A stretch of 64,000 nt of DNA, from assembly GCA_032718475.1 (NCBI GenBank), contig JAUCBJ010008848.1:1-64000 (forward strand), in the 5' to 3' direction. Both the position numbers and the translations under genes were made by a program. Shown one piece after another: positions 17,167 to 63,999 of the stretch; the stretch's first letter is position 1; each line of letters opens with the position of its first letter. The stretch is from Nemertoderma westbladi (lineage: Eukaryota > Animalia > Xenacoelomorpha). Below the pieces are notes generated by a model. That model had not been told where the DNA came from. It saw only the letters and a program-made list of their open reading frames with translations, and made no database searches.

Positions 17167-17232
<66 letters not shown>

Positions 17233-33662: not shown

Positions 33663-33728
33663 ATTGGTGTCAATCACTACACCGAGGTGGAATCAATTTC
33701 CCGGGCTAACTTGACAATCAGGGTGACC

Positions 33729-34800
33729 GGTCCCTAACCGGTGAGGCAGAAATACAGTCTATAGAATACAGACCAAACTCGCGAGAAACAATCCCGCGCA
33801 GCGAATCCTAACTAACGCTGATGGACCTAAAACTGCTGCAGATTTGCTGCTGTGTGATTCATATGGGTATAATAACGAGCTAGTGAGTTGACCGAACACT
33901 AGCGTACTGCCGACAGATAAGACAGTCAAATAATATCAGTAGAATAACATAAATCTTAAGACGCGTGTGTGTGTGTGCGTATGTTATGGCAAAGCGAAAT
34001 GTTGTACGATTTATTTTACTAGGTGTTGGTGACTTTTAACAAAATATATATCGGGTGCTAGCTGCTAGAATAAGCTAGTCACTCTCTAAAAGCGAAATAC
34101 TTACAAATTACGTCAAAGGGCTCTCTCCTTCTATATTCACAAATCGATCGGTCAAATACGGTGTTAGTAACTACGCCCGTAATCGGCACCTGATACCAGA
34201 TTCTGATTGTGAAAATAGAGATAGAATGTTAGTTTTACAACCGTAGCACATCTGATCTGGTATAAATAAATTCAGTTCTAGAAATTTTGTTGCTGCGATG
34301 TTATGCAGCAATACCAAGCAGTACGTGGCAAGGGCGCGGTAGTAGATTGTTAGTAACCGCCTTCAGCCTAGATGGTACGTCTGTAGTAAGAAAGCTACCC
34401 TTTGCCTGAGTAATACATCAAACCCAGTAACCCAGACAGATCAGTTGACAGCAACTATCTACAGAGCTAACCGGTACTGATAGCTGGTACAGTAAAATCA
34501 CCAAATTACAGAATGTGCTATTTGCACTTAGTGTACCTGAGCGCACTACTAGCACCAGCTCGCACCTGTGTAAATCGTGCAGGTCAACTGTGGGGTATCT
34601 GTAGGGATCCGAGATATTTGCTCCTAAATTTTATGGCATCCCAGGACGTCCTCACATTTCACCCTGATCTAAGGCCTTACAGTGGGTGAAAGTGTCGAAC
34701 GAAGTCTTACCTTGGCGTGGGTAGTTTTAAATAAAGGCTTGGGGCTCATGACCGAATGTGTGTGGGCATTAGCGCGGGTTCCTTATGCGTCCTGTAGACA
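33729..34800 (-). repeat. 3' LTR of copy A
   Basis: Minus strand: PPT AGGGGAGGAA directly before TGTCTACAGG at 34800. Collinear with LTR 41418-42685. Confidence 0.75.
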
Positions 34801-35870
34801 TTCCTCCCCTTGTTGTGATAACAAGTGATAACCGAAGGGCAAACAGAACCTTATATCGGAAATCCTAAGCATAGAATCGCACTAGAACATTCTACCACAT
34901 TTCATGGGCTCACATTGGACCAATAAATTATCAAACACCTATGATTAGCCCAACTAATCAGTTCATGTGCTGTACGCACTCCATTGGCTTGTCTAAACTT
35001 AACGAAACATGAATAAATTGCACAAAAATTTAAATTCGAACTCTCGACCTATCTCAAATGTAACCTGCGCGCTTAACCTACTGGGCCACTGGACCAGTAG
35101 TAACTCGTGCCGAAAATATACTAAACATAGGCAATATATGAATTTATAGCAAAACTGTGAAAGCAAGGCAAAATACGTCTGATTTTAAAAGTTTTTTTAC
35201 GTAGTATTAATATACAAATAGCTACCTTAACAGTGAAATAATTCCACGCCGCTCCATGAAAACCGTAAGTAAGACTGTTTTCACCAATCAAAATATAAAA
35301 ATACCAACTAAAAAATATATCTAATCTAGGGTACGGCCTAAAATATAAAATAATCACTGCTCGGTCTTATTGCATATAAGATATGGCAAATATCACGTAA
35401 ATATAAAACTTTCATACATACATACATACAAATACGGATTTACTATCTAATATTATCAAGGCTTGGTGCATAAAATATAAAAACTCCCATTGATTATCCA
35501 AATATAAACAAACTAAGGCAAATAATTTCAAAACGTACATAATAATCATTTAAATACATAATAAATTCGCCAAATTAAATCAGTCCAAAATAAAACGAAA
35601 CATAATAATGTAAAATAATATTCTAAATGTCCTCCTGGTGACTATAGAGTTCGTCCTACTGGTCTAGTCGTCAATCCTGAGCACTTAACGCTAATGGTAG
35701 GGTCGCGAGCCTTCCTTCCTCCACAACCTCGCTCCTTATCGCTTTGTCGACCGAGCTCGACCTTGCCCTTTAATACGATTAATCGGTGACTTTGGTCTAA
35801 CTGGGCTTGGGCTCCTGCGTCGAGTCGGTTCTAGAACACTGGGAAATGGAACGACTGGTGTTTCGCACAT

Positions 35871-36656
35871 TCATCGGACACTTAGTCCAAGAAATCCCCG
35901 CCTGACTCCAGGTTTTCGTCTAATCGGGTCGGATGGAGTCTCTACAACGCTCTGAGGGAGTTTGAGAAGCGAAACCAAGTTGTCCGCCGACACCGTCGAC
36001 AGCTCTCGGACATCGTCTGAACCCTCATGGGTTCGGGCAAAGGACATCCTGTCCCGCCTTCTGGGATCGGAGTCTTGAGGATGGCGCATCGAATCCGGCA
36101 ACGGAGTAGCCGGTAAACTATCGGGATTTAGCAAGTGGTATATGCGTAAGTTGACACACCAATGGGGGAAAACTAGGCATCCTCGACAATCCTCGCAATT
36201 GGTGCCACCGCTTGAGCAGGGTAAGGTTGAGGCTCTCCTCGTCATCTCTACGTGAGGTATGTGTGACAAACGTTGAGCGAAGGAAATGCTATCGAAGAGT
36301 TCGGGTGTCATCTCTTTCGTCTCCGATTGGTCGTGAGAGATCCAATAGAATGGTAGGCACACAAGCCTTCCACCGAACTCCTCGATCTCGCCCTCCCCAC
36401 ATGCCTTGTATGCTCTATATAAGCTAAGAGCTTCTTTATTTTGCTGTGTAGATTTATTCGATGCATCTACTACCATACTGTAGACATCTGGTTCAACAGT
36501 CTTTGGTTCGTAGACCACGATTTCTCCAGCGTTTGGTCCGCTCATCTTAAACGAATGGTATGGATTCGTCAAAGGATATCCACCTTCCTGATAACGCGAA
36601 CTCTGGTGATTCGAACATCGTTGCGCTAAAATCATGACGGCTACTAGAGGGTGCAC
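35871..36656 (-). pseudogene. Internally deleted copy of the BEL accessory ORF
   Basis: RYQEGGYPLTNPYHSFKMS..LPFYWISH..MTPELFDSISFAQ matches 56130-56939 plus 53560-53860. The C-terminus matches the end of 51008-52096. Confidence 0.8.
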
Positions 36657-39339
36657 AACAGATGTTAAATGTGAGGATACTTAGAGGTTTTCGTTGGCCT
36701 TTGGCTCAACTTCGCTCTAAACCCCTACTCGTAGCCTAAGATTCAGGGTACCGTGTGATTTCGCCCTGGCTCCTAATCCAAAATGTGCTGATAAAAAATA
36801 ATTCGGGCAAACTGGGCAAACTAAACCCCTACCCGTAGCCTAAGATTCAGGGTTCCGTGTGATTTCGCCCTGGCTCCTAATCCAAAATGTGCTGATAAAA
36901 AATAATTCGGGCAAACTGGCCATAAGTCTAAAATACTCACCTTTTAATCCCAAACTACTTCCCAGAAAATAATGCAGTCGAGAATTAGTCAAAGTAAAAA
37001 ATAATAATAGACACGACTATTGGCACAAGGCCATTTATATTCTTCAAAAAAAAATATCAGATCTTCCATCCGCTCTTGTCCCTCTCCATTTTGGTCCCAT
37101 CCGACCATATCCTAGAATCCATTCATTGGAGAATCAATTTTCCTAAAAATTTCAAAATCCAAATGGATTGTCTAAAATTTTTTAAAAATTGTCTCACTTG
37201 TGGGTTCCAAGTGGAATTTCATTCCTTTGTACGCACAAAACCGCTCCTATGTGATACATAAGGGTACTACCCTCAATGTTCACATATAAAGACAATGGAA
37301 TTCCACCGCTGTCTTTAACCTACAGTGTACAGGTATACGGTAGGACTATGTGGCGACCATCAAGGGTCCCACATTACTACTTACGTGGTTTATATAGAGA
37401 TTTATAATCTCCCGTCTCGTTTCGAGTCTCCTCAAGGAGTACGAGACGTTGTATGGGTCTGTCTACAGTACGTCCGTCAATTAACCGTACAGTCACAGTC
37501 CGTATTACACCACCTGATGTCAGGTGTGTGGTCAAAATGACTCCAGTCAACCAAAACCGTCTTTTCAAGTTGGTCTCTGCCAATAATACGTGGTCACCAC
37601 GCCTTAAAGACCGGGTGGTAAGATACCAAGTGGTCCTGGTTGAAATAGAGGGCAAATAATGTTTCTACCATACTTCCCAAAACTTGTTGGCTAACAGTTG
37701 AGTGATTTTCAAGCTTTGTTGCCGTAACTGTCACTGTCCATAGGTACGGAGGTAGGTAACACTGTAGTCGGCGCCTGCATAAGCAGGTGCACTGATGTCA
37801 AGGCAAATCGAGACTGTTTGTCGTCGGTAACCAAAGCGATTGGTCTAGTATTTAATATCGCCTCGATTTCTATTAATAATGTAGTCAATTGGTTGTCTGT
37901 CAAAATGCGTTGCGTAGGTATTACTTTCACCATTGCCGTTTTGATAGATCCAATCAACCTCTCCCAAACTCCGCCTCTCCACGGACTGTCTGAAGGGTTG
38001 AAGTTAAGATGATCTTATGGGGATGTAGTTCCTTGGAGATCTGATTGTGGTCTACCTTCTTTAAGGCTCTAGCAATTTCGTTCCTAGCACCCACAAAGTT
38101 GGTCCCTTGGTCGCAATGTATGGATTTGACCAATCCACGTCTAGCGATAAATTGCCGTAATGCGAGGATAAAAGCATTGGTAGTTAGATCTGTTACACGT
38201 TCAATATGAACTGCTCTACTAGCCATGCAGGTAAAGATCAATCCCCAACGTTTCGCCTGTACGCATCCACGTTTTGCGTTTATAGGTCCAAAACAGTCAA
38301 TCCCCATTTCGGTAAATGGGGGTCTAAACGCTTATAGTCTAGCTAATGGTAGTTCACTCATCTCTTGGCGTCCTATTCTCGCGTGTACCTTCTTACAAAT
38401 GATACCGTTGCGTGGTACTGAACTCAATCCCTTACTGGGTCTAATAAATACAAACCTCAAACATAAGTGTGATAGACAGTGATGTCTCCCTACGTGTTTA
38501 AGTTGTATATGTGTGTCCAGTATCATAGTGCACTGTAACTCGTGGTGTTGCGGTATAATGATAGGATACCTAAAGTCAATAGCAACGTCAATGTTTTGGA
38601 GCTGGGACTTATGACAAAGTAAGCCCTTGTATATTATCGGACTCCAACTCAGTATCGGTGAAGACTTAATCTGTTTACCTTGATTGATTGCTGTGAACTC
38701 TCGTGCGAAATATCGCAATTGATAATGTCTAATAATATCAATCTCACAGCTATCAATTTCAGCCAAGGTTAGTCTATGTGGAAAGTTGCGTTTGCCTTTG
38801 GGATATTGTCTCAAACGTTTGAGCCATGCCAACTTGCGGCAAGCGTTTGTCCATGATCGTGTCAGGTTGAATATCTGGTCGACATAAGCATTAGTGACGT
38901 CACCGGGTAAGGTATAGGTATAGTGTGGAGACTTGGTAGGCCCGCGGGCCTTCCGATGAGTGTCTCCCTTTGTGCAATGGGATTGTCTGGGTCCACAAGT
39001 ACTCTCTTGGTCTCCAGTATCTTACCTTTATCATCAGCACTCGATGGGTTGACCTGTAATAGTGGTTTCAACTCTACGGAATTGGCGTGTTTCTGTGGAC
39101 TTGTACGTCTCCTAACTTGGGTCACACATTTAGCCATGGGCTGTAAGTCAGTTATTTTCCTTGAGCATAGTGTGATCCCTGTATTTATAATTTGATGGGC
39201 ACCACCCATATTTGCAATACCTGTAGTGACACCATTGTCTTGGTGACTCAAATAAGTCAAAGTAGGTAAGTTTTACCAACTTACCTATTTTGGTGGTCAA
39301 TACTAGGCCTCTCCAGGGGGGTAATTGCGCTGTTATAGT

Positions 39340-39759: not shown

Positions 39760-41417
39760 GACAGTGGCACCTTTTTCAGCAATATTGGAGATACGAGATT
39801 GGTAACAACCAATCTCGTATCACAACCAATAACGGGGACAACACAAACCCCAAAACCACACAAAGGGAGGTTAGAGGTCAAACCACCTTAGAAGGGAAAA
39901 TAACCAACAGGGGCCAACAGAGGGGGAAGCACTCCCAGAGAGGTGAGAGGCGTGAAGTAGGTTATCAGCCAATAGGAGTGGGGGAAAGGATCCACTGGAC
40001 AAAGGCCACAGTAATGTAGGAATGATTAGATATATTATCAATGTGTTGAGATACCAATTCAGTTATTCAGTCATTAGTTTGAGTGCAGACCGGTGACATC
40101 TTACACCGTCACCGTCACTACATATCATCAATATCCTACCTACCGCTACACTGCTATTGTCAATAACATCATATTAACTGTGCTATTACTTACTATTCAT
40201 TTATCGACATATTATCAATCGAACATCAAGACGATAACAACAAACTTTATTTCAATACCACACGGTGACGCGTAGTCTGAACAAACCGGTCGGGATCCCT
40301 TGATCCCATCGCAGTGAAAGATACCAGCTACCACGAAACTGTGACTGCCAGGCAAGATGAGCACAGGACAACAACGATTGTCGGAGGGAGAGAGGACACC
40401 ACCACGGACCCCGGACGATACCAACCAAACGATCTGCGAGGCCGCGACGCGACGGTACCGACCTGCGACGCTGGATTCGCCGACAAGAGACGATCCGGCA
40501 GTCCAAGCGGAGGGCGGCCGTCTACCACGAGAAAGGGACGAGTCGACGCATGATGGCGGTCGAAGTACCGAAGTCGCCGGCCAGCCACAGGCCGAGGGCA
40601 ACGGACGGCCCACCGGAACGGCGACGGTGGGGCCGCCGGTACGATGCCGAACCAGGAGAGGAGGAGGAGATGTCGGCGACGAGGACGTCGGAACCAGCGA
40701 TCGGCTTCGACGGGCCTACAACGCCACGAAGAAACTGCTCAAGGAGGCCAGAGAGGGGGCAAAGGTAAACCAAGGGAAGTTGAGCCAGCGGCTAGGTGAG
40801 TCAAATAAACATTTCAGATATCTAGTCCGTTTCGGGCAGGGAGAACTGGCGAGTGAGAGAGCGAGGGGGGTCGCCACCGAACTATTCGAACTGTGGTGAT
40901 CCGTGTTATGGAGCCTGAAGTAGTGTATGTAGGGCCGTATTTAGTGGATGCTAGGGGAATAAAGTTAGTGGGTTGGGCAGATCCGCACGAGGGCGAACCC
41001 GAGGTTAACCCCAAGGATTCGGTCTCGTCAGTCAGCGAGAACCCCAGAAAGCGGGGGAAAATTAGTAGGACAGAGAGGCGACGGGAGTCCATTGCGACCG
41101 ATAAGTCCACTACATCTGAAAGATCCTCTACGGTAAGAACTATCCCACGGCCTACAAATCTACTAATACGAAGCTATAGAATATCCCTTACTGTGGAGTC
41201 CAGTAGTATACCGCTTACCAGATCCTAGTAACGATGTATCTTACTGTAAGATCTAGTAATGTAACGGACTCGTATAGTATCTGACAACAAATCCCAGTCC
41301 AGGGTATCTATTCAAACAGATACAATACACAAACGGCTACTGGCGAGGAGCAGAGCCTAGTGTCTATTCTATGTACGTGAGCGGGTCTAATGCCTACGAA
41401 CTAGACAAAAGGAAACC
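39760..41417 (+). mobile_element. Probable 5' part (LTR plus gag start) of another BEL/Pao-like element, cut by element B
   Basis: GC-rich ORFs 40357..40899 and 40893..41228 with a helical segment and the motif VNPKDSVSSV, as seen in BEL gag N-termini. An LTR-like non-coding region lies upstream. Boundaries uncertain. Confidence 0.4.
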
Positions 41418-42685
41418 TGTCCTCTAACCGGTGAGGCAGATGTACAGTTACAGTAACAGACCAAACTCACGGGAAAACAATCCCCGCACATCGAATCCTA
41501 ACTATCGCTGACAGTCCTAAATACCGTAACTTGCCGCGGTGTGATTTATATGGTTTATATACGAGCTAGTGGGTTAACAGACCTAGCGTAACAATACTGT
41601 TCCCGTATTAAGTCAGTCTAAAGGGGGTCGTGCCTAATGTAACAATACCGCTGCTCAGACAAACAACAGTTTAATAACGAAATAAATACTCCTTCTTGCC
41701 GTAACTAAATATCAGATCCTAAATTTACAAACTACGAATAGTGAATTACAGATAAATTCTGCCTAAAAGTAATCTAAAGTGCGCTATAACTAGTAGAATT
41801 CTAAGGGTAAATATGTTTTAGGGCGTGTGTGTGTGGGTGTGTTACAATAAAACAATTTTGGTGTATATCATTGTACTAGGTTTTAGTAATTTTCTGACCA
41901 AAACAACACCATGCGCTAGCTACGAAAATAAGCTAGTTGCGTTTTGTAGAACTTTATACTTACAAATGACGTCAAAGCTCTCTCCTTCCTATCCACAACT
42001 CAACCGGGCAATTACGGTGTTAGTAACTACACCCGTGATCGGCACAAATACCATATTCTGGTTGTAAGATAAGAAATAGGGTTAATTGCTACCGTACGTT
42101 AGCTGATCTGGTATACAAATTTGATTCTAGAACTTTGTTGCCACGGTGGTTAGCAGCAATACCTATCAGTACGTGGCAAGGCGCGGTAGGATATTAATAA
42201 ACCTCCCTAGGCCAAGCGGTGTGCCGGTAGCAGAAATGCTCCTTGCCTGATCAAATAACTAAGGTTCAGACAAGGGGGGGGGGGGGTACTAATGTATGTT
42301 CTACAAAGCAAACCGGTACCAAACTGTCAGTATTACGCATCACTAAATTATGGAACATGCTGTCTGTACCTAATATGTACTCGCGTACTGACGAATGGCA
42401 ATAGTTCGCACCTGTGAGATATACAGGTTAACCCAGGGATTTGTAATACAGGGGGGGGGGGGGGGGGGGGGTTCTGTCTGAATCTAACTATTTGATCCTA
42501 AATTTTGCGGCGTCCCAGGACGGCGTCACGCTTACCCTGATCTATAGGTCTTACGTCGGGCAAGGGCGTCAAACAAAGTCTTACCTTCCTCGGAAATCGG
42601 GCGCTGCATGGCAAAGGTGGAGTATTTCGAAGGGCGAAGGGGGTGCGCGGTCTAATCTAATGTGGGCGCTAGCGTGTTGTGGACA
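41418..42685 (-). repeat. 3' LTR of copy B
   Basis: Termini TGTCC...GGACA. Minus-strand PPT AGGGAAGA adjacent at 42686-42693. Confidence 0.8.
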
Positions 42686-43814
42686 TCTTCCCTGCGTTGC
42701 TGACGGCCTAATTGTCTAGACGGCCATCTTCCCAATGCTTGGCTGTCCCAATGGTGGACGATTGGAAATATACATGTTCAGAAGTTTACAGTATATTTAC
42801 AGTTTTACAAAGATTTATCAAACAGATTACTAGATTTATAACAAAAGAAACAAATACTAAGTTAACAAGAGTTAACATTAGTGAGTGATAACTAGAATGA
42901 TAAGCAAGTGTAAGTGGATGATAACCGAAGGCAAACCAGCCCTTATATGCTAAATCTGGGACATAGAATCCATTAGAACCTTCCAGAGCATTCCATGGCC
43001 TCACATTGGAGCAATAAGATGTTCCATGCCCTATGATTGGCCCAACTCATCGTTCCATGTGTTGTACGCACCTCATTGGTTTATCAAATTATATCAAATG
43101 AAAATAAATTGGTATATTGAAAATAGGTAAGACAATACTGCAAACATATCAATCTGTACCGGTACTAACTAAAGATATCTTGGGGCGAGCCATGATAGCA
43201 TGAAGGCGTTACATCACTCCCCCTAACGAGAAGCGGAGCTATTAATTATATAGTAATATACAAAATACACAATAATATATTACATAGTATGAATATTTAA
43301 GGGAAAATAATTATTTCTGCACTACAGACAGACAGTAATTATGTACTTACTAACTGTTTAATACAAAGTATCAATAACAAATATGATGTTAGTGAAATTA
43401 TATATTATTTCTATGGGTAGGATAACTATTATAATAATTAATATATTGTAACTAGATAGGTTATGTAGTATAATTGGTACACGTTCCAAAAATATCTCTG
43501 ATTTAAAATTAAGACACAAAGAAAATAATATTGCAATCCTTTATTATTACGTTAATCATATAGATCACAGATTAAATTAAACCGTACACTTTTTGTTTGT
43601 TTTATTTTATTCGTTAATAAGACTTGTGGTTCGTCTCCGATTTCATTATTTTCCAAGTTAGATAATACAGCTGGTTTTACCCTATCCAGCGATACAACGT
43701 GTTGCTCGTACTTGCGCACAATTGTTACAGTTTTATTTGTTAATGAAACTATACGAAACGGTCCTGTATATAAGGGTGCCAGTGAGGATCTTTTAATAGG
43801 ATCTTTTATCCATA

Positions 43815-46484: not shown

Positions 46485-46947
46485 CATACATGTGTTGCAT
46501 TCGATAATTGAGATGGAACTGACGATTTACATGAATAATTACGGACTGGTGGAACCAAACTATCAATTTTCGTGAATAGTTTAGAAATGTACGTCGGTAC
46601 ACTCATTGTCTCCTGTAATGTTGATTCAAAACACTGCCCGGGTAAACAAAGTTCAGATCCATATACCATTTGTGACGGAGAATATTCGTGTAAACCAATT
46701 ACAGACCTTAATCCCAATAACACCATGGGTAATTCATGATACCAATTTGTAGAATTACATTTAGCACGCAGTGAATTTTTAAGCTGCCTATGAAACCGTT
46801 CGATTGCACCATTGCATGCCGGATGATAGGCAGTTGTACGTCGTCTCTCACTTCCTAATTGTAGCATCAAACAGTTCCAAAACTTTGATTCAAATTGTGC
46901 TCCCCTATCAGAAACAATTATTTTAGGAACTCCAAAACGACCAACCC

Positions 46948-47238
46948 TACTACTAGGATCGGCATGCTGCATTGCAGCTGCATTTTTAAGGATGCTGTGC
47001 CGGCTTGTCAACAAAATTGCACCGCCACAACTCCCTATCACCCATGACATTTGCTAGATCATCCGCATCTTTAAGGCCAGTGTCCTTTAAGATGCGTCTC
47101 AAGAAAGTCATGGGCTGTCCACCATGCTTATTCACTCCATGAGGCTGCCAAAGTACAAGATTATGCACTGGCTGGTCCTCACGGCGAAAGCAATGTCCTG
47201 CAAAGCGGAGGCGATTTTGTTCTAGTGTCTAGTATTAG
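46948..47238 (-). mobile_element. 3' fragment of the RTE LINE family seen at 24212
   Basis: Near-identical to 24210-24491. 11-bp TSD ACGACCAACCC (46937-46947, 47239-47249); removing the insert restores integrase NWVGR-FGVP. Confidence 0.92.
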
Positions 47239-49686: not shown

Positions 49687-51007
49687 ATGGTGATTCACCA
49701 CGTGTCACAATACCTAAATTTAATAAATTGTCAAATTCTTGTCGTGCTGCTTGTAATTTAGTACCAAATAAACGTCGGGGTTTTGAACTTTGAGGTGGTC
49801 CTGTCGTTGTAATATAATGTTTAACTGTATGTTTTATAGGCTCAGACACTGGTTTGTCAGTAAACACTTCATTATATTGCACTAATAAATTGTCAACCTT
49901 GTGAATCAAGCACACTTGTGGTTTAGTTTCATTGATTATACATGGTATATAAGTCAACTTCTGGGTATTATAAAAAATGCCTCATTTCGTGCCGTTGCGT
50001 TGGCAACAGCAGCAACATTTACAAACAACATAGATACACAAAATATAAATAAACACTTTGAAAATAAAAGTAGGTTTAGTAAGGCAAGTTGCTAAAATAG
50101 ATAATAAGGTAAATAAGCACAGCACAATAAATCTGGTAGGCAATGAAAAATAGTTCCTGGCGTTATTTAATATATTGCTACCAACTCCATTTGAAGATTT
50201 ATCCGTATCTTCATTATGGAAAAAATGAGCTGCATTAACATTTGCTTAAAAATCTTATAGTGAAATAATCCATCACCGCTCCATGAAAACAGTAAGTAAG
50301 ACTGTTTTCACCAATCGAGATATAAACTATTTACAAAATATTTCTAAGTCTAATGGTGGGACCTAAAATATAAAAATAATCACTACCTAATTATTGCATA
50401 CTTAATATTGCAGGTACGGCGTAAATACAATCTATCATACATACAAAATACAAATTTACCAATTAACTTTAGTGCATAAAATACAAAAAAAGCTTTCGGT
50501 TATCAAGATAAGCAAATTAAACAAATCAGAACAAATCAAAACAAATAATTTCAAACTTTCAACAATCTTCATATATTGCAAATATACATAATAAACTTCA
50601 CCAAATTAAATCAGTCCAAATATAAAACAAACATAATGCGCTAATAACTTTCAAATAAGTCTTAAAGTGTCCTCCTGACGATCTTAAAAGTTCGTCCTGC
50701 TGGTCTGGATATCTTCTCCTGAGCACTAATCGCTAACGGTAGGCTCGCAAGCCTTCCTTCTCTATCTCGCTCCTCCAAAACCAACGTCCAATATAAATAC
50801 CCAAATATAATATCCAAATATAAATATCCAATATAAATATCCAATATAAATATCCAAATATAATATCCAAATATAATATCCAATCGGTAGGCTCGCAAGC
50901 CTTCCTTCCTTCATCTTGCTATCCTATTCCTTAGCCGAACGGGCTCGTCCACGCCCTCTAATACGATTGGGTGGTGGTCGGGATCGAACTGGACTCGGAC
51001 TTCGGTG

Positions 51008-54000
51008 TCAAGCTGTCGGTGGTTCCAAAACGCTAGGAAAGGGGACGACGGGAGTTGCGTACATCCGTCGTGCGCTCAGTCCTCTAAATCCTCGTCCGAT
51101 TCCAATCGTTGGCTTAACATCGGATCGAGTCTCCACAACGCTAGGAGGAAGTCGAAAGGGTGGGACTGTTCCGTCCGCTGACACCTCGCTCTCTGATGTA
51201 GTCTGAATTCTAATGGGTTCCGGCAAAGCATATCCTGTCCCTCCGCGTGGTTCTCTAGCGAGGGAAACCGTGCCCCGAGTCATCCGGATTTGCGACTTCG
51301 ATGTCGTCCTCTCGGCGACATTTACTATCTTCTTTATCTCTTGTCCGGCCTTCTGGGCTCTAAGTATATGAAGTTGCGGATCTTCCTGTGGGTGTCGAGT
51401 CTTTTCGGCTAACGGCGTGGCCTTGAAGCCAGTCTCACGCAGAACGTCCGCCTCATCTAAAATACACGAGGTTACGCGTTTGTGATAAAATGCGCTCCGG
51501 TATGCCCAAGCTATAGAATGCCAGGCTCCTCGATTCCGCTGTTCGACTCGAAATTTGTCAAATTCCCCGGCGGTAATCTTGTTCACCACAGTTTGAAAGT
51601 TCCATGTGTTCTTATTGTCGGGGTGTACCTGTAGGAAGTAGTCCCGAACAACCTTAAATCCGCTATCCAAAGGCAATATATCCAGCACCTCCAAGAGTTC
51701 ATCGTATTGAGGCATAGCTGACACGTATCCTTCTTTCGACATTATGAGAGGGTTTACGGCCCAAAATCCCAAGTGTGCTCTCATAGGGAAACGGCGTCGC
51801 TGTGTCGATACATGCTCGTCTGCTAGATTCTCCCAATGGTCGAATAGCTGTCGAATGATTTTAACTGACATATGCTCATAGGGGATGTCCCTAAGTTGAC
51901 ACTCTGATGCCCTATGACCTTTAATGTTACAATACATGCACTGCGCCACGAAATGCCAGCAAGTGTAGAAAGTGTGCAAACGTTGATCCCCACACCAGTT
52001 ACATACTAGGTCCGGTAGAGATATATGTTTCGCTCCGCATTTCTTTGCGGGCCAGTTGCCCCGCATCTGCCACAAATTGTGTTGGCAGGGTACCAAACTC
52101 GCTCATAGATGAGATCTCCGATGGGGCGAGCGCTACCGTCCACGTGATAATTCTCATCATACGGGTCAGTCAGTATGTTCGTCTCCGTAGGTTGTGCACA
52201 AACCATGGCATCGCTTTTCTCCAACTCGCGTATCTCAGTTCGCGTCTTCCTCGGAAGGTTCTCCTCTATCTCTATGAGTTGCCGCAATGGTTTGTCTATT
52301 ATCGCAAACTCGGTTGGACCCACATCATCATGATGGGCGGTAGGCTCACGAGCCTTCCAGGATCCTTCCGGGCCTTTGAATTCCGCGTGGCGTTCCCCAT
52401 CGTAGGGTAGTAACGTCAACATCGACGGTCTGTCGACTAGGCTTCCCGTGTGAGTGAGATAGACGTCCCTGAAAACGCTAAGTCCCGCTCGCGTGAAAAC
52501 TTCGCAGTGCGCATCGGTGTTATAAAAGGGTTGGAGAAATCGGCGGAATACATCAGTATGCATCCTTTCTCCGTCGTAAAAGGTATGTCCTTCACCGAGA
52601 CATAACGGATGTCGCTTTAAAGTCCTAGACACTACATCGGCGATGAAGCAAACGTTTACCGAAGATTCTATCGCCAAATAGTATTGCAAGATTATTCGTG
52701 GAGGTGAGATAATCGCCCAGTACACACAACCTCGCCACTTCAACTGTGACTCAAACTCGTTTACGCCGGGCGTATCTCACTCATCGTATACGTCCGTGTA
52801 TTTGCTCCTCTTGCTCTCCTTATAATCCCAACTAAACATTAGGTATGAGATATAACCCGTTCCAGTTTTTAGCGTGTTATACTCCCTGAAATATCCTTGC
52901 TCAATAGCCCAAAGCAACAATGGTCTAGTATCCACGTATGCCGTAGGCAATCGATCCTCCTCCATGGGCATTCCTGCGAAATCGATAATAAGGTCATCCC
53001 GTACACCGGATCCGATCTTGACGATACTTTTATCAAGTACAACGTCTCGTACGGACGGCCTTTGGTAACATCCTAGCTTCTATGCTACAAGCCAGGTCCA
53101 TGGATTTAACTATCCGTTTTATCATCGGCATAGGCATCTTTCTGTCGCTCCTCTGTCGGCTGAAGACATGTAACACGCCATCTGGTGCTCGAATCTGTAT
53201 GGTCTTTGAAGTGAGGCTTTGCTGATGGCTTCCTCCTTCATTATCGTAAAACATATAACCATTCTCCTTCAGAGATCGGCTAGTTGCGTCCCAATCGTTG
53301 AGTAAATCGTCGGTAGGGTTCCAAATTCTCCCTATTGACTTTTCATCGTCGAAACTAATAGGTTTTCCTGTCCAATTGGTCGCAATATCGGTGTGGGTCT
53401 CAAACGTGCCGACTCCGATCCATAATCGAATCGTTTTCGTCAGATATCCTCGCAAGATGCAAGGTGCGATATCCGTCCCCGCGCGATCCACTTCCTTAAA
53501 GTCCATAATATGTGGAGGCACATTGCGTACGATTTTCTGTACTATCGTCCTACGCAACTCTAACAGACTGACTCTAACACATCACCAAAGGTAACCGATG
53601 GGAGGAAATCCAGGTTCGAAATGATCTCCGGGTGTTCAACTATAGGAATCTCATAAGTTGTCTCCTCTCGGGTCGGTATACTAATAGGAAAGCTGGTTGG
53701 TCTCGCGACTGGTACTATCGCTTTAGTAGGACGGGGTTGAGGTTCTTGCGTCATCTCGACGTAAGGTATCTGTAGTCTCTGCGACAAATGCTGAGCAAAG
53801 GTGATACTATCGAAGAGCTTGGGTGTCATCTCCTTAGGTTCGGTTTGATTGTGGGATATCTATGGGGATATGCACTGAGCATATGAGAATATGAGGTGGA
53901 GAAATATCAACATAAATCACGATCATATAATGTAGAATAGAATGTATGAGGAATACAATGCGGTACACACAACGATAGTGCGGCAGTGTTCGACAGAGTC

Positions 54001-56939
54001 CCGAGTCCAGACCTGTGTCCTTGAAGGACCCCTACAGCAGTACAGTACAGAGACAGTATATGCCAGTATGCCAGATAAGCAGAGCACTAGGCTATGGGCT
54101 GCATAGCGCGCGTAGCAGTAGTCTGACTGTGACGTCATTGCGTGTCACGCGGGTATCTCTAGGTATAAGCAGCGCGGGCTGCGTCCGCGTAGTAGATGCG
54201 TACAGTATATCATCACACCCCCTTCTAGGTTATCAGTGGAAGTGAATAAACTACCCAAGTCTATAGTCTGTTGGGTGGGCGTCTGTGACGTCGAGGGTAG
54301 GTGCGCTGTGGTGAGGAGCGCGCAGGGATTAGTGTTTCGCTGGTGAGCGGTGTCGCCCAGCGAATGCCTTTGGGTGAGCCAGACTCGGTGGTGTCATCAT
54401 TCCTTTGTGTCCCAGTGGCAGCGTTTAGTGGTGTACCAGCGGTGGTTGTCCCCTGGAGACCCATTGGTAGTGTCCCGTGTTGTCCCAGCATTGGTGTCCC
54501 GTCGTGTTGTCCCGGTGGCGGTGTCCCTTAGGAGGTGGCGACGGTTACGGGTGAGGCAATGGCCGGACATTGTACGGATGCGATAGCTGCGATGGGAAGC
54601 TTCCTCGGCCACGACCCCGGTGCGATCCCAACGCTTTGTGGTCGGGTTCTGGATCCGCACAGGGTCCCCCACTGTGAGAGTGGGAAGTGGTTTGGCCCCA
54701 CGGTTATAATAGGACGCCTGTGATGTCATCAGCGGTGGCACAGCGGTGTCTAGCGCTGTCCGTGTCGCTTGATGGTCGGCGTTGAAGGCCCTGCTGTGCA
54801 TGGGCACCCGCGAGCGTATGGGGTGTCCAAACAGGATTTGGGCTGGTGATAAACCAGGGACTGTGTGGCGTCGAGGAGCGCGCAGTAGTCGCGGTAGTCC
54901 CGGGCCGTCTCGCAGAGCAAGTTGAGGGCGAGGTCCGCGAAGTTGTCAGTGGGCTCCGAACCCTCCGTAATGGCCGCAACCGTTGCTATGGTAACCGCGT
55001 GGAGATGGTAGGCCATCTCGCCATCGTCGATCAGGTCGTCGGGGGACGGATCATCGACGGGTGCACGGGATAACGCGTCAGGAATGCGGTGCTCCTTTCC
55101 TTTCCTCCATACCATTGTGAAGGAGTAAGGAGTGAGTTTCGACTTAAGCCGCTGGAGGCGTGTGTTATCCGTGGAGTCGATCGTGTATCGATCGAGGATT
55201 GTCACCAGTGGTTGGTGGTCGACAATGAGAGTGAAGTTGGGGAGGACCAGTAGGTAAAGTCTACATTTGTGGGCAGCCCAGGCAACGGCGAGCAGTTCGA
55301 GCTCCACCATCGCATAGCGCGACTCGGTTTCGGTGATAAACCGCGATCCGCACTCCACTAATCTCTAGTTGTCGTCATGGCGCTGGAGTAGCGCGTACCC
55401 GAGTCCGTTCTTCCGGGAAGCATCGGTCTCGAGTTTAGTCTCACGTTCCGACTCGAAGGGAGCGAGAACTGGGGGCGAGAGAAGCAAGAGTTTTGTTCTC
55501 TCGAAAGCCGCCTTGTGGTCGGAGGTCCAGAGGAAGGAGTTTCGCGAACTGAGGAGGGGGCGGAGGGGCGACATTGTAGAGGAAATGTCGGCCGAAAACG
55601 GGGTGAGTTGTTCGACGAGTCCGACGAAACTCCGCAGGTCGGTTATGTTTGTCGGCCGCGGGAAACTCGCGATGGCCCGGAGCTTTGCCGGGTCGGCCCA
55701 TATCCCGTCAGCCCCGACAAGGTAGCCCGCGAACTTGACTTCGCGCTGGGTGAACTGGACCTTGTCGGGATACAGGGAGATGCCTGCCTCGCGACAGCGC
55801 TGGAGGAAGCACCGAACACTGGCGAGGTGCTCGTCGAGAGAGTTGTTGTACAATAGGACGTCGTCGACGAGTTTAGTGAGGTTTGGCAGGTCCCGGAGGG
55901 CATCGTCGCCCCGCCGGTTGTACTCGTCCCCGCTTGAGATGAGTCCCATAACACTCCGACAGTGTTTGTAACGGCCCCAAGGCGTCACAAAGGTGGTGAG
56001 GGGTTGGGTTTCCTTCTCGAGGGGTACCTGCCAGTAGCCGGAAGCCGTGTCGAAGGCAGAGAAGAACTTCGCCAAAGTAAGGTAAGCAGCGCGGGCTGCG
56101 TCCGCGTAGTAGATGCGTACAGTATATCATCACAATATCCAGTAAAATGGTAGGCTCGCGAGCCTTCCGCCAAACTCCTCGATCTCGCCTTTCTCGTACG
56201 CCTCGTACGCCCTGTAGAGGCTCAAAGCTTCCCGTTTCTCTTGTGTCGACTTATTAGACTCGTCCACTACCATATTGTAGATGTCTGGTTCGACTAATTT
56301 GGGTTCGTAAATAACGATCTCACCCACGTTCGGTGCACTCATCTTGAACGAATGGTACGGATTTGTCAAAGGGTATCCGCCTTCTTGGTAACGCAGACTT
56401 TGGTGGTATGAGCATCGTGCTAATATCGGCTCGGGGTTCTCCGAGTTCAATCGCATAGGAATCGCGTTGTCTTGCTCGCGCATACATGCTCCACATTTGT
56501 AAAACAGTTTATATATGGAGAACGCGTCCTTTGTCTCTGGATCCGCTCCTGGAGCGCGTCTATAAAGATGCGTTCCATCAAATTCGTCTCTGGCTGCAGG
56601 CAAGGGTTCGTTTGCCGTCAAACATTGCAGCGTATGATATAATCGGCGTATCTCCGTGTCTGGATCCTTGCAAATGTCACTGGCGTCGCATAATGCATCG
56701 TAGGGATACAAGGCATTGAACTCCCCGCGTAATTCCTCCGCTCTTTTGTTATAAGTGTCCAATCGCTGTTTTGTAATATTCAGGTCCGCCTTGGATTTAG
56801 CGAGCTTGGCTGTACTCCTAGCCATACTCTCCACTCCAAACACGCTAAAGTTTTTAGCTCCATAACAATTAAACGGCGCCTGGTGCTCCTGTTCCTGCAT
56901 AAACCCCTGACGTAACTCCTTATAAATCTTCTCCGCCAT
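51008..56939 (-). pseudogene. Accessory ORF of BEL copy B (about 1200 codons when rejoined), zinc-knuckle protein, split by a Gypsy insertion and frameshifts
   Basis: Same-strand fragments 56130-56939, 53560-53860, 53033-53557, 52777-52971, 52006-52743, 51008-52096. Contains CGRC, CNWC-x5-H-x4-C and CMYC-x4-H-x4-C. Confidence 0.7.
53861..56134 (-). mobile_element. Internally deleted Ty3/Gypsy element (Mag-like) with TSD
   Basis: TSD ATATC (53856-53860, 56135-56139). 3' LTR 53861-54217 with PPT AGAAGGGGG. About 52 bp of the 5' LTR at 56083-56134. RT (GYWQV, VDD), RNase H (TDAS, ELELLA, DHQPL, PDALSR) and integrase C-terminus (YYNRGAKPLPTL..GDPVRI). Confidence 0.92.
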
Positions 56940-58337
56940 TATACACGCGTATATATGGTTACATATCGTTACGTTTCTACTAGATGAAGCACAAAATAGA
57001 GGTTAGATGTGAGGAGACTTAGAGTTTGTCGGCTTTTGGCTCAACTTTGCTCTAAAACGTACAAAACAAAAAACGTACTACGTAGAACAAGTGTTCGCGC
57101 TTTTGAAGACCTTTAGCAGTTTAACCTGCCAAAATTTATATGTCTTTTAGTTAATTAAAACACCCTTAGCATACGACAATATTTTATGCTAATAAACAAA
57201 ACATTAACCGAAGCCAGCCCATGCGCGATCATTCACCCGATGGATACACCCGGGAGGCTGAATTCGGCTGCTTAAATTTTATTATTGCAGTGTAAGGTTG
57301 CAGTGTAAACCTACTGTATTATTCGATTGATCACTAATAATTAATTTCTGACAGATATTATTGGCTTTTGGGAAATATTAACAGTTCCTTTAGGACGTGG
57401 CGCTCTATCTATTTAAACAGAGCTAGGACTTATACTAAACGCAACGATACTGCTTATGATTAAAGTATAAGGCGCATTCTTTAGGAAATGCTTTGTTACC
57501 AATCACAATCATGCACACTATTCTGCCGACCGTCAGTAAATTTGATCACACATAAAGAGAGCAGCAATTGACTCATGTAGGGTCTGCTAAATAACATTAG
57601 ATTCAATACACACCACATTGATATAAATCGCAATTGTTATATATAGCCTGTCTCTCTAACCTGTAGTGTATCAAGAAAATTGGGAAATTTGGGTGATTTA
57701 TCCGTATTCTCCAAAGGGCAATATTTCATCAACAAATAGATACAATTAATAACTGACGGTAAATAACAGTACAAACAATATGATTAATAGTGAGTTAATT
57801 AGATCAGTTAGATTAGATAACAGTTATACTTTCGATAATTTAAGCAGTTTTACTAGAGTTGTTCCAAAAGCCGGTGTTATGGCGAAATATGGGAACACAA
57901 CAACAGAAACATGTGACTACTTGACTATACGAGGACACCAACTACCCTTATTCCCCGAAGCTCCCGTCCAACACAGAGGATGAGCATACAGATAGGAAAT
58001 TCAGTTCAGTAGCTCTGGGATAGGTCAAAATCAACGCCCACTCAAATTCTATTGGCCGATACGGACAGCAGGGCTGAGGCAACCTCCCTAAGCTGGTTGG
58101 CCGATCGAACAGAACCCAGATACCTTCGTACAGCACATCAGCCAATAAGCTGGTAGCTTGCACTATTTTAGCTATAGATCCCTTTTAGAGTATTCTAGCG
58201 ACCGGGGGGGAACTGGCCAGCAAGGCAAACGAATCAGTTATCCCACAAAAGCTTTTACACCGCTCCCAGAAAATGGGATTTAAGTCTATAAAATATACAA
58301 AATCACAGTTTCTAAAATATAAAAATACTCTAAACAG

Positions 58338-59786
58338 TTAGTCTTTCTTGCGCGGACGGCGTTTACGCAGTTTTTTAAAGCTAGCAAGAGTCCTTTTCTC
58401 TTTGGGGCGAGCCACTTTACGAGGAGGGCTATAACTCCTGGGTGAAGGGTGCAATATGATTGCATCAGAAGGTATGGGATTGCGATCGGTGTATCCGCCG
58501 GTCGAAGTACCGGGTTGATTGACATCAACGTCCGGGGAGAGGGGTCTAACGGCTTTGAGAGCTCGTTTCAAGACAGCCGCTCTTACGGGTCCTTTACGAG
58601 TGGTCTGAACGAGGGCCGTGGGTGGACCATAGGCAGTTAGAAACTTCCTTGGTTTAATGGTTCTTTCCAACTCGCGTTCGCGGGCTCGGTACTCGTAAGG
58701 CCGTCGATATACTTCTTGTAACTCAGGGTGTGAGTTGACGAATAAGTCTCCATAGGCAGGGTCTTGACGGATAAAGTTTATTAAGTTGTAAGAATGGATG
58801 TCACTCGGATTAATGCTCCTGAGAAATTTACGTACATATTTGGTTGAAATACATTCTCCAACGCGCTTCAGTAGTTCATAACTTGATATGCGTGATTTCT
58901 GCTCGACGGAGGCAAACAAATAAGGATGGAACGCATAAACTCCTTCGTAAGCGCGTCCAGGGTAATAGCGATGGCGTGAATCACAATGTAAATCAGCGTT
59001 CGCTTCCCAAGCTCTGATATAACGTAGTACAATCATTTCATCTACGCTCTCTAAATCATGATTAAAGGGACAATCAAAGCTGGCGTGTCCTTTTAATTGA
59101 CAATGGTGACATTGAGTCATAAATTGAGGGCAAACCGCAAAAATGTGCAAGTTATTGAGTCTGTAATACGCGCAATAAATTTCCATCGTCGGTTGTTCGT
59201 GGAAATAGGAACAGCGGACGTTTGTGTCCATGGGCGTAACATGGTCTCTCGATGCGCATAACCGACAACATTGCCGAGAAACATAGTTGGCATGGCGATA
59301 ATCGTACGCAGTGAGACACTGTGGACCTTGATACCATTCTAGGAGGTAATCGTTGTCGTTGTTCCGGGCGCGATAGGCTGAATCTCCTCAGATTCTAGGC
59401 ATATTGGTTCGTCTTCCCAGTCTGTTACGAATATAATTTTCGTGATCTATTCTCGGTTTATCGTTACGACTCCGCTGGGTATGATATTTAAATAGAACCA
59501 TTTCCCTTTCGGTGTATACATCGTCCGTATCATGTAAATCGATAGGATGGCTGGTAGTTAGGAAGTCCATATACGTACCATTACGATGCGTATAGCGAGC
59601 GGTTAATTTTCGATAGTCCAATTCACGCGTAAGTTGCTCTTGGGACGTCGGCGGTTCGATATAACGACCATCGTCCTCCGTAATGGTTGGATCGGCTTCA
59701 CCGCGTATCAAGCTATCCACAAATGCTTGTAAAGGTAGAGTATATCGTTCCCTGATACCAAGATCATCTTCTATTAATTCCGTCAT
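58338..59786 (-). CDS. Accessory zinc-knuckle ORF of BEL copy C, about 482 codons with one internal TGA (59388-59390)
   Basis: ORFs 59388..59786 and 58338..59231 are in the same frame and the 52 intervening codons are open. Contains CRLC-x4-H, C..H-x4-C, CHHC-x4-H-x4-C and a basic C-terminus KKLRKRRPRKK. Confidence 0.75.
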
Positions 59787-61436
59787 ATCTGCTATCTGAG
59801 TTTATTAATATTAGTATGAGTCAATATTTAGGCAAGTGGGCGTCGCTGCCTACTAGTCTTTGCCCCCGGACAGTGGGTTTCTCAGCGCCGATGTACTGTT
59901 GTCGCGGTGTTTACGCCAACATGTAGCAACAGCACGACAACGATAACCGGCACAAGTCCCACCACTGTCCGTCCCAAAGGCTTGAATCCACTTGAGGTTA
60001 TCTCGGTAGAGTTAGGGCTACTTTACAATTGCGATTAGCTACTGTAAACACACTTTAGTAGTAACATTCACTTATAAACGCACAAATTCCATACAATCAT
60101 TACTTACTGCACACATGCAGGCCATTTGTCCGTTAGTCAGTGTCTTCCAGAATGTCACGTTATTACTATGTATCCTTGGATACATAGTAATTAAGGAAAT
60201 ATTATTAAGAAAGATTATAGGAAATAAGAGTATACTCTTATGCTACGCAATGGGGCAAGCTTTTTGTTGTTCCTTTAACTTGCTTCTAATTCTAGCGTGG
60301 GTGTTGCCATGGTGACATTATGGAAAACTAGCGGTAGAATTAGGGTAATTCTCATGCATACAGATCTGGGATGTTATTTAATAGTAATTCTTTAATTGTC
60401 AATATCCTCTTTATGCATGATTTTATAAATTTTATCGGCTATTGACTATATGCTGGAGATTCTCGCACTTTAATACACTCAATATGAATCTCCGCTCCCA
60501 TGATCTATTAATTACTGGAATTTTGGGAATGTTATAAATTGCACAAAATGACAATTTATGAAATTCATTTGAATATGAATTTAAATTTATTCCCGTGAAT
60601 TTTATTATTTGATGTTAAAATTGACACAATTTGATTCCAGAGCAGGTCTGGGGGCATAGGATCCTTAATTCTATGACAATTGTCTTTTAAGAGTATCGGT
60701 AAGTGCTGCGATATCTTAATTGACTAGAAATTTAAAGGATCTGAATTTTACAGATTTTACTAAATATTAAATTAATATTTAAGATGGGCACCGATTTATT
60801 CCAGAACTTGTCTGGGGACGTTAACCACTGATTCTAGAATTTGTCTTTCAAGTATATCGGTGGGTGCCGCGATATCTTAATCGACTAGAATTACAGATGG
60901 TCAAAGTTTAACAGATTTATTTGCGTTTTACGCTACTGTTATATGGACATCACGCTACTATATGTATTATTTAATATAAGGTAGAAGAGCAATATCGCAC
61001 GAAGCAATGTCAGTGTGAAGAGGCAAGTCGTTTCCAAGGTCTACCCAGAGCTTGGTTTAGCCGAGACACGAGGATCTGAACTTTGCATTCCTAATACTCT
61101 GCCTACCAATAATACTTGAATATAGTAGTGGCTTTATTGTACTTTAAGAAGTACGGACATTTCATCTTACTGTAGTCACGTATTTATAATATGATACGGA
61201 CAGTAAGGAAAGAGAAAAAATTATTTCTCGCCGTCGCACTAAATATATATTATAAGTAATTACGTACGTAATAAACACTAATATATTGCACTAATCTACT
61301 AAATAATCACTAAAAATAACATTCTACTAAATAAAATTGAATAAAAACGATTATAATAAAGTACATAATAAAGTTTGCATATAAAGATATAACAAAATAG
61401 ATAAAATAATATAGTCATACACCCACTCCAGACGTA

Positions 61437-63999
61437 TCACGTTTGGGAGTCCCTAGATGTTTGAGGAATTAGGGAGGTGGTCGTGGGAAGAGTGTCCTGT
61501 CTTCCATAGTTTCCAGAGAGTTCTCTGTCTCTTTCCAGTAAACATAAACGACCAACTGGGCGATTGAGTTGTTGCGTCTCAAAGATTATACCGGGCTTCT
61601 TGAAGTTACGCCGCATAACGATGAGTTCTACTGAACGCACTAAACCATCCTCCGAAATATGGGTCTCGATGATACGACCTGTCTGCCACCGTTTACGTGG
61701 GAGGTCTGGATCTACAATAAGTACCATATCTCCGGCGCTGACGTTTTCCTGCTGCGCAAACCACTTAGTTCGAAGTTGTAGCGTGGGCAGGTAATGTTTC
61801 TCGAAATGGTCAGCGAAACGACGGGATAGCAACTGCATAAGTTGCCAAGTTCGACGGCAGTATTCGTCTCCGTCGGCAATCTCCGATCGTGGGAGCATGG
61901 CTACCGGTTTCTTCAGTAGGAAGTGCGCAGGTGTTAGCGCTTCCAGGGAATCGGGACTCGATGAGACTGGCATAAGCGGTCTCTCGTTGAGATAGGCAGC
62001 TATTTCCTCCATTAACGTCCGCAAAAGTTCGTCGGTGAGATACGCACGGCATGGCACTATAAAGTGAAATGCGGTCCTTAACACTTCTAATTAATCTCTC
62101 CCAACTTCCTCCCCACCAAGGGGCGTCGGCGGCGTTGAAGGTCCAGCTAGACGCTGTTATCCTTAGCTGGTCATCCACCTGTCTTTGGTTCCAGTCTTTT
62201 ACGTAAGCCTGTATTTCGTTGTTGGCACCAATGAAGTTCGTTCCCTTGTCCGATCTCATGGTATTACTCGTACCGAAGCGAGCGATCTGTCGTCGTAAAC
62301 TTAAGACGAAACTGTTGGTAGATAGATCGTTCACCATATCGAGATGGATGGCTCTGCAAGTCATGCACACGAAGATGACACACCATCTCTTGACTATAGT
62401 CCTCGCACGATATACTTCAATAGGGCCAAATAAATCTACACCAGTATTAGTAAAAGGTGGTTCATAGAAGCTTACTCGTTCCCTAGGTAATTCTGCCTCT
62501 CGCTGTGTTAAAGGCCTACTGAATGTTTTCCTACAGGGTATGCAGTTCCTAAGAACTTGGTTCAGAGCCCTACGGGGTTTATCAAAATAATAGCGAGTTC
62601 GAATTTCGCTAAGAACTCGTTCTCTTCCAGCATGATAAAGCTTACTGTGAACATCTACAATCATCTTGATTTGTACTTCAAGATTTCTAATGAGTATGGG
62701 GAATTTAGTGTCAAAGGATAAGGGTGCATTGGTTAACCTTCCTCCAACACGTATTAACCCATCTATCATTGTGCTAGAGAATCGATCCCTTAAGCGCATC
62801 TGCGGATTTCTCAACAACAGGAAATACTTTTCGGAATCCTCATAGCATTGCAGGAGTCTCAGTATCTGTTTATTAGTCTCTTCATGCTCCTGGTGACTAA
62901 TTTTCTCCTTTAGAAAACTGTCAGATATCTTATATTTAGGTAAGTTTTTAATAACATGAACTTGTGCAGATGTCAATGGAGCGTTATCACTGGTGGTCTT
63001 CGCCCTGGAGTATTGATGATGAAAGCATCTCTTTAAATATGTGACGGCTTTACAGAGCCGATTCCAGGAACTGTAGTGATGCATCGCTCTCTGCAGCAGG
63101 GGTGAGATTCCTTGCGAGACGTCTGGTATTCCAGATTTCCAATCTCTATCTCGAATTTCCGCAACAGACTTATTTATAGCGAGGGATTGTGGATCCAAAT
63201 CATCGTTTCCGGAAACATGTAATACAGATAGATCGATAGTCGGTTTAAATAACTTCGATTTACTCGCCCGGGTTTTAGGTTTGACGGTCTCCGCTCCCTT
63301 GGCTTGTCTAATTTCCGCCGTAGTAAGGTGAGGAGGCCATTCGTCCTCTTCCATGCTCAGGAAGTCGGGTCCACCCAACCAATCTGGAGTATCTATCAGT
63401 TCCTGTGGAGTTGCTCCCCTGGAGGCGATATCGGCTGGATTAATCGTACCAGGGCAATGTCTCCATTGATCTATCTTTGTGCGACTAAGAATAATAGCTA
63501 CCCTGTTAGTAACAAAAACGCTGAACTGACAGACTTCATTGGTTAGATATTCCAACACGAGTAAAGCGTCGGTCCAATAAACCGTTTTCTCCAGTGGGTA
63601 ATCGATTTGTTCCGTTACGTTCCGGCCGATGGCTGTAGCGTATAAAGCCACTTTTAACTCCGCTCGAGGAACCTTTAACTTGTTGTTAATCAGTGCCTTA
63701 GAGGTAACCAAGGCGACTTTGATCCCATCCGGAGTTTCGACTCGCAGATATGCTATTATACCTATTCCCATGTCGCTGGCGTCTCCAAACACATGGAGTT
63801 GATAGGAATACGTCGGAAGAACGTGTCCAAAATATGCACGGGAAATGATAAAGTTCTCGATGGCAGGTAGAGAATCTTCCCATTTCATCCATTTCTTCAA
63901 CAGTTCTCCCTTAAGCGGATCATCCCATGAGTGGTTTTCAAGCCACATCTGTTCTACTAAACTCCGAGCAATCAATATAACTGGGCTAATAAATCCCAA
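61437..63999 (-). CDS. BEL/Pao Pol C-terminal part (RNase H/Pao domain and integrase), one frameshift near 62080
   Basis: LHVFGDAS, PRAEL, YWTD, NPADIASRG, RVGGRL, H..YHAG..CIPC, GVDLFGP, SDKGTNFIGA, GGSWERLI, LNERPL, LTPAHFL, DGLVRSV. Confidence 0.93.

Follow-up and report, generated by a model that had tools for sequence, protein, structure and literature searches.

A putative zinc-knuckle, non-envelope third gene in two distantly related BEL/Pao retrotransposon families of Nemertoderma westbladi

The window analyzed here, a stretch of 64,000 nt from Nemertoderma westbladi (contig JAUCBJ010008848.1), is repeat-rich eukaryotic DNA and is dense in nested insertions. An LTR retrotransposon on its minus strand, named element C, shows the following parts:

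61437..63999, minus strand: pol of element C, from RNase H to integrase (Pfam PF05380, PF17921 and PF18701 in order; 17 BEL/Pao polyprotein matches); runs off the window
59787..61436, minus strand: AT-rich non-coding spacer of 1,650 nt, with only two frames of at least 55 codons
60002..60015, minus strand: branch-point motif CTAAC and AG acceptor, where two joints of run X5 end
58338..59786, minus strand: third gene of 482 codons, interrupted in this copy by an in-frame stop (codon 133)
59070..59267, minus strand: Cys/His region of the third gene, with one non-canonical cluster followed by two knuckles six residues apart
58785..59069, minus strand: conserved domain after the knuckles, with a WExxADxH block, common to C and B
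58341..58640, minus strand: basic, Ser/Pro-rich tail of the third gene, ending in an NLS-like Lys/Arg run
58260..58266, minus strand: polypurine tract (PPT) GGAGCGG, identical in elements A, B and C
57092..58259, minus strand: 3' LTR of 1,168 nt (TG...CA); the LTR copy at 269-938 matches it at 72%
57655..57663, minus strand: splice-donor motif in the LTR (exon end 57661), the only AG/GTRAG- or GTTAG-type site in the LTR

The pol of C, which ends at 61437, contains a Pao-type RNase H region and an integrase, with the integrase last, as in BEL/Pao elements (Belpaoviridae). Pfam scores were E 2e-27 for Peptidase_A17 and E 4e-21 for DUF5641, this copy has a frameshift near 62080, and a second element of the window, A, matches the same region. 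Furthermore, BEL/Pao elements carry LTRs and, before the 3' LTR, a PPT some 10 nt in length; here A shows an LTR pair, C shows a TG...CA LTR, and the PPT is common to them. No Gag triple Cys-His box was found in A or elsewhere in the window in six frames (best E 0.12), and the gag of C and B lies beyond the window, as do the RT and the primer site (tRNA-Arg/Gly in BEL/Pao) of C. The initial annotation had described C as pol, spacer, a long frame, PPT and LTR; this order was recovered, with the PPT 72 nt beyond the third-gene stop, but the frame is not open, owing to the stop at codon 133.

The first 1,435 nt of the spacer are likely the 3' end of an intron. Most of the indels listed among C copies fall in the spacer or the LTR, and the spacer contains a direct duplication of 143 nt (73%) at 60615-60918. 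A joint left by a deletion of about 1.7 kb inside pol (61565-63291) is present in all four public runs and suggests a widespread deleted derivative. The second C-family LTR (269-938, minus strand), which keeps the donor motif, is probably a 5' LTR whose internal part lies beyond the window edge.

The stop at codon 133 was analyzed in the public runs. No substitution with a share of at least 20% was found at this codon in either of two runs, and the stop may be family-wide. However, five of the seven listed pieces spanning the stop stretch carry gaps relative to the window copy, and clipped ends with neighbouring common variants cluster there; we therefore read it as a local register break in this copy and its near kin. 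The reading frame predicted for the N-terminal third of the gene is only provisional in other C copies.

Two further elements, A and B, lie on the minus strand. The third-gene region of B starts directly below the LTR of C; C sits directly upstream, so the pol of B is not in the window. Element A spans 33708-43111; between its two LTRs lie remnants of a BEL pol and a third gene with an internal deletion. The parts of the two elements are:

56976..57006, minus strand: element B, AG preceding the third gene, with branch-point motif and pyrimidine tract
56135..56945, minus strand: element B, N-terminal part of the third gene, with 81% amino acid identity to A over 94 codons
53861..56134, minus strand: Ty3/Gypsy-type element inside the B third gene (RT/RNase H Pfam matches); A has the uninterrupted junction
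51008..53859, minus strand: element B, middle and C-terminal part of the third gene, with several breaks
52012-51596, minus strand: element B, knuckles and WE domain, within the preceding part
50276..50282, minus strand: element B, PPT, with only about 20 nt of LTR beyond it
41399..43111, minus strand: element A, 5' LTR, 67-78% identical to the 3' LTR, with the donor motif at the homologous position 42585
37380..39021, minus strand: element A, pol remnants of the BEL/Pao integrase region (tblastn E 1e-49 against C pol and E 4e-62 against P0002)
35874..36680, minus strand: element A, acceptor region and third gene, the latter without knuckles through an internal deletion
33708..35255, minus strand: element A, 3' LTR and its PPT; a single AG/GTAAG donor motif at 34711

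The B third gene has about 1,220 codons, is split by the Ty3/Gypsy insert and by several other breaks, and is 2.5 times longer than that of C. The domain common with C corresponds only to the C-terminal part of the B gene, and large N-terminal regions, about 850 further residues in the A/B protein, have no counterpart in C. The N-terminal part of B shows a separate CX2C...CX2H motif and likely a coiled-coil stretch, both near 56400-56500 on the minus strand and absent from C. The Ty3/Gypsy insert itself is internally deleted, with one full LTR and one LTR remnant of 52 nt. The third gene of A matches that of B at the start, the middle junction, the end and the 3' region. The LTRs of A, about 1.5 kb, exceed the 0.2-1.2 kb quoted for Belpaoviridae (PMC8742986). 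A shared layout had been proposed for C and the A/B family, and it holds in that in A, too, the third gene comes after pol; however, the A knuckles are deleted, B has a far longer gene with 726 nt between its stop and the PPT, and the B pol is outside the window. The dissimilarity of the LTRs was borne out, since C and A share nothing beyond words of 12-15 nt.

The remainder of the window shows other repeats and one gene-like frame. A frame of 172 codons with a RUN domain (Pfam E 4e-25) at 18287-18802 (minus strand) is a host-gene fragment or retrocopy amid the repeats. By eye, an open frame of 1,020 codons at 11215-14277 (minus strand), which starts in a 30-nt tandem repeat, resembles a LINE endonuclease-RT, and further LINE-like RT frames are seen at 43936-47053 and 24525-25928 (minus strand), the former being split near 45371-45543 by a tandem repeat of 12/16 nt. 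Tandem arrays occupy 6995-9900 (43 nt), 14778-17202 (315 nt), 20233-22000 (23/17 nt) and 48837-49686 (29 nt). In addition, a pair of inverted repeats of 271 nt (88%), 4.2 kb apart at 28935-33663, is possibly a DNA transposon.

The predicted products of C and B show 26% identity over 138 amino acids (tblastn E 9e-14). The stretch after the last knuckle scored 91, whereas 2000 shuffles reached 52 at most; the match is more than a knuckle artefact, and the homology that had been judged by eye between the C and A/B products is substantiated for C and B. Linkage of pol to the third gene is seen directly in C and A, while the knuckle domain is seen in C and B; A matches the B third gene and carries a BEL pol, and so ties B to BEL pol. 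This linkage rests on copies C and A together with even cover, no single contig bridging pol and third gene. Although the LTRs of C and A are unlike, the PPT is the same in all three elements.

The integrases of A and C are about 41% identical. In a FastTree phylogeny of the integrase region, generated from 96 of 100 rows (four too short were dropped) with an alignment anchored on C and a midpoint root, A and C pair with a support of 1.0, A being a long branch. On these sequences, the tree suggests a deep carrier lineage containing A and C, both of them long branches, and the third gene was probably gained once, in the ancestor of both families.

The initial annotation had given each product three Cys/His clusters, but these are not all canonical: under a strict motif scan, C has a single canonical CCHC and B has two. 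The first cluster departs from the canonical pattern in C, and in B a frameshift runs through it. The clusters of C include one CX2CX4HX4C. The first of its two adjacent knuckles (the second cluster) is degenerate in this copy, at codon 208, where 98-100% of the run depth differs from the window copy. Pfam zf-CCHC matches to the third genes were sub-threshold only. The basic tail was found in full in C, whose last 100 residues contain 24 K/R and 6 D/E, but less so in B, with 14 and 8, respectively; the Lys/Arg run that ends the C tail is a candidate NLS. No hydrophobic stretch was found by 19-residue Kyte-Doolittle hydropathy, used in place of a dedicated membrane-segment predictor, in six pieces of C and B (maximum 0.46-0.81; two middle B pieces excluded), in agreement with the reported absence of a transmembrane segment. 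Modeling, which had been put forward as a check, was carried through but yielded only two models of low confidence (pLDDT 38 and 41), in which the domain after the knuckles appears helical; a fold search with the first of them gave no match.

Selection on the C third gene was analyzed in two public runs over 58740-59440, at variant sites with a share of at least 20% (40 sites; per-run tallies of 30 and 37). Synonymous variants were 28 of 40, against an expected fraction of 0.307 (p 4e-7, omega about 0.19), while the other two frames of the strand gave 10/40 and 4/40. Sites with a share below 90% were synonymous in 27 of 35 cases; by contrast, four of the five near-private sites were non-synonymous, as expected from decay of the window copy. 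The pol control showed 20 synonymous variants among 27, taken from the best 40 of 1080 variant rows. Between A and B, the 94 N-terminal codons show pS 0.71 and pN 0.10, and of the 69 differences 47 fall at third positions. Purifying selection on the third gene is thus shown in two families, as the initial annotation had supposed from protein conservation, and we consider it very probable that a real, selected third gene exists.

Several observations concern the RNA from which this gene is expressed. The C LTR has six AG/GT sites in all, and the donor motif, which in a complete element would act in the 5' LTR, is present in all four LTR copies with a readable region: the C LTR, the copy at 269-938, where it lies at the same place as in C, and both A LTRs, each of which contains exactly one AG/GTAAG motif, at homologous positions. 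A branch-like motif and AG precede all three third genes (A, B and C), with a pyrimidine tract in A and B; in C the acceptor AG (60003-60002) lies 9 nt after CTAAC and 215 nt before the start codon. Furthermore, two sequence-divergent contigs of X5 join the C LTR, at or beside 57661, to about position 60000, from GT donor to AG acceptor. X5 is one public run of contigs whose type is labelled 'DNA?', a guess, and the join was seen in X5 among the 15 of 41 and 12 of 57 rows listed. It could derive from RNA or from a reverse-transcribed DNA copy, and the latter would imply spliced RNA all the same.

Depth in X5 relative to X1, computed without the first bin, was 12.9-fold higher in the 10 bins that fall within the predicted exons than in the 19 bins beyond them, the two ranges not overlapping, contig depth being of a kind that cannot rank genes; the same ratio was flat in X3 and X4 (1.17 and 0.85). 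This excess is a weak hint of spliced RNA. Taken from the X5 joins, the donor motifs in the LTRs and the acceptors before the third genes, it is likely that the third gene is expressed like env, from a spliced subgenomic RNA.

Searches for relatives of the gene were negative throughout their scope. No homolog was found for the C piece in a protein collection at near lengths, for a two-sequence alignment of the domain among longer proteins, or for the B piece among 1.84 billion representative proteins, and viral, metagenome and prokaryote contigs gave no relative of the third gene. The third-gene pieces gave nothing above threshold in Pfam and nothing significant among PDB sequences, where the only rows were MuLV NCp10 knuckles (E 0.26-0.51). 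The Atlas search, which covered the pieces apart from the middle of the B gene, returned only leads below 0.9, the best for the N-terminal piece of B being 0.76. Among 80 other BEL loci from metagenomes (the best 80 of 543, from 12 of 64 collection parts, several from one assembly), none showed a third-gene homolog (best profile E 0.53); the pol end was mapped in 77, and only 17 of these hold at least 2 kb downstream. The long frames found downstream of their pols were the gag of the next copy in three cases (Pfam) and, by eye, gag starts in two more. The sole viral match in this search, L081, was a phage contig and was dropped. Within the reach of these searches, the domain that follows the knuckles belongs to no protein family described so far.

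An envelope protein was discarded because no hydrophobic segment (six pieces of C and B) and no match to fusion glycoproteins (Pfam, PDB, large databases) were found. A duplicated BEL Gag nucleocapsid was discarded because a profile built from 48 triple Cys-His boxes gave 3.1 bits for B and -3.8 bits for C, while the best true boxes reach 85-95. In 48 of 48 boxes the first linker has 18-20 residues, and no capsid similarity was found in the third-gene products (best blastp E 0.13).

BEL/Pao elements are described as gag-pol with occasional env, their replication being called poorly understood, and the ICTV profile of Belpaoviridae lists gag, pol and env only (PMC8742986). The members with env-like third genes (Semotivirus; Tas, Cer7; Atlas viruses) are like the present elements in Pol domain order, PPT and LTRs (PMC8742986) and in the position of that gene between pol and the 3' LTR (PMC8742986; PMC554778). 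The third gene described here differs from theirs in having no hydrophobic segment, and in having zinc knuckles and, in C, a basic tail. With the BEL/Pao Gag triple Cys-His box it shares Cys/His clusters, including CX2CX4HX4C, whereas spacing and profile are unlike and no similarity to capsid was found. LTR elements of bdelloid rotifers have ORF3s (GDSL, DEDDy) that are likewise non-envelope cargo in the env position; these are enzymes with recognizable homologs in the Juno/Vesta lineages, whereas the present gene is in BEL/Pao and has no such homologs (PMC5408684). The literature covered gave no account of a BEL/Pao third gene with zinc knuckles; it included PMC3118150, PMC2774666, bioRxiv 10.1101/2025.03.14.642691, PMC12440569 and the Atlas virus preprint 10.64898/2026.03.22.711591, with Repbase, Dfam, GyDB and most subscription papers outside this scope; the BEL/Pao sequence supplements of PMC3118150 may bear on novelty. 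By its sequence, the gene would be a zinc-knuckle, non-env third gene of two distantly related BEL/Pao families, with no database relatives.

Two known regulators invite comparison. Cer1 of C. elegans is an element of Ty3/Gypsy type, and HIV-1 Rev is a small, Arg-rich protein without knuckles. The Cer1 protein CERV is translated from a spliced Cer1 RNA and contains a Cys-rich loop along with a candidate NLS; the export of unspliced RNA depends on it (PMC10309623). The present gene is like CERV in the likely spliced element RNA, the Cys-rich putative RNA-binding part, the NLS candidate and the lack of similarity to known retroviral proteins; it differs in that CERV has peptides in common with Gag and combines a C4-type loop with H, M and G domains (PMC10309623), whereas the gene studied here follows pol and encodes CCHC knuckles. 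The likeness to CERV is one of description, export being shown only for CERV. To Rev it is likened only in the proposed role, that of a spliced-RNA product licensing the export of unspliced RNA (PMC10309623).

The initial annotation had proposed a nucleic-acid-binding regulator. This is borne out in part: a real, selected, non-env third gene stands, and its anatomy and the splice evidence fit such a protein. The reading that we favor, tentatively and at somewhat less than even confidence, is that this BEL/Pao third gene, expressed from spliced RNA, gives rise to a zinc-knuckle protein that acts in the nucleus and binds RNA of its own element in the manner of Rev or CERV. The element RNA would start in the 5' LTR and would be spliced by default, with gag and pol removed, as in env RNAs. 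A strong LTR donor with an acceptor after pol implies default loss of gag and pol, and so a need to keep and export unspliced RNA. The third-gene protein would enter the nucleus via its basic tail and bind the element RNA through its knuckles, and this binding would free the unspliced genome from splicing or nuclear retention. The balance would then tilt to full-length RNA, available for packaging and for the synthesis of Gag-Pol, in a feedback comparable to that of HIV Rev or Cer1 CERV. Such a feedback regulator is the simplest fit.

The selection and splicing evidence would apply equally to an anti-silencing or anti-decay factor, whose knuckles bind the small-RNA or exosome-targeting machinery or shield the element RNA. 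This is consistent with the X5 hint, itself weak, that spliced RNA far exceeds pol-containing RNA (12.5-fold, ORF against pol bins), as if the protein were needed in quantity. The knuckle spacing of the product may resemble that of Air2/ZCCHC7, and the Atlas leads include AIR2-like knuckle clusters, at 0.79-0.80, below the level meaningful alone. Rotifer LTR elements with non-env ORF3s have been proposed to carry auxiliary functions (PMC5408684). However, no significant match to silencing or decay proteins was found in Pfam, PDB or large protein sets, and an element that splices out gag-pol directly needs a regulator of splicing or export, so we regard this role as rather unlikely. Tandem knuckles and a basic tail are also the anatomy of a nucleocapsid, and the MuLV NCp10 rows, although not significant, were the sole ones in PDB; an auxiliary chaperone acting in the cytoplasm or particle, in packaging, primer annealing or strand transfer, is nevertheless unlikely, given the lack of fit to the BEL Gag box profile and of capsid similarity. 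The carriers' own gag, whose knuckles may or may not have been lost, is outside the window (C, B) or not recognizable (A).

A captured host or foreign gene, with its main activity (an enzyme, or cell-to-cell spread) in the WE domain or the N-terminal part of B and with accessory knuckles, would account for the additional N-terminal residues of B and A, 94 codons of which are under strong selection. A catalytic role is conceivable for the conserved residues W, E, D and H, and rotifer LTR elements provide examples of enzymes (GDSL, DEDDy) encoded by a non-env ORF3 (PMC5408684). But C, which is without the N-terminal regions, is still selected, the B pieces showed no Pfam, PDB or Atlas match, and the six pieces of C and B analyzed showed no membrane segment, which makes a captured activity decidedly improbable. 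Finally, nested insertions are frequent in the window and this copy has a broken frame, as would suit a non-coding artefact or the chance-inserted gag or ORF1 of an unrelated element, an alternative that the initial annotation had itself raised. The gene, however, occupies the same position in two families with dissimilar LTRs, is selected in frame and is joined in X5 contigs to the host element's own LTR donor; neither termini of its own nor an RT nearby was found, and its cover is about as deep as that of pol in three runs (0.80-0.88), which argues weakly in the same direction. An independent insert was thus rejected, and we give this explanation very little credence.

With the Rev- or CERV-like regulator as the preferred reading, it is possible, though doubtful, that a deep BEL/Pao lineage independently evolved its own circuit in the style of complex retroviruses, in which the LTR donor makes RNA lacking gag-pol the default product and the knuckle protein, of a new family, serves as the element's Rev by turning on export of the full-length genome. 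If true, no regulator of this kind was known before in Belpaoviridae, and the strategy would have arisen independently a third time, after retroviral Rev and Cer1 CERV. The presence of a third gene that is selected, likely spliced and unrelated to env in two families, deeply diverged and apparently high in copy number, would mean that BEL/Pao elements can evolve gene control like that of complex retroviruses, and it would offer a handle on how LTR elements with splice sites bring unspliced RNA to the cytoplasm and evade silencing.
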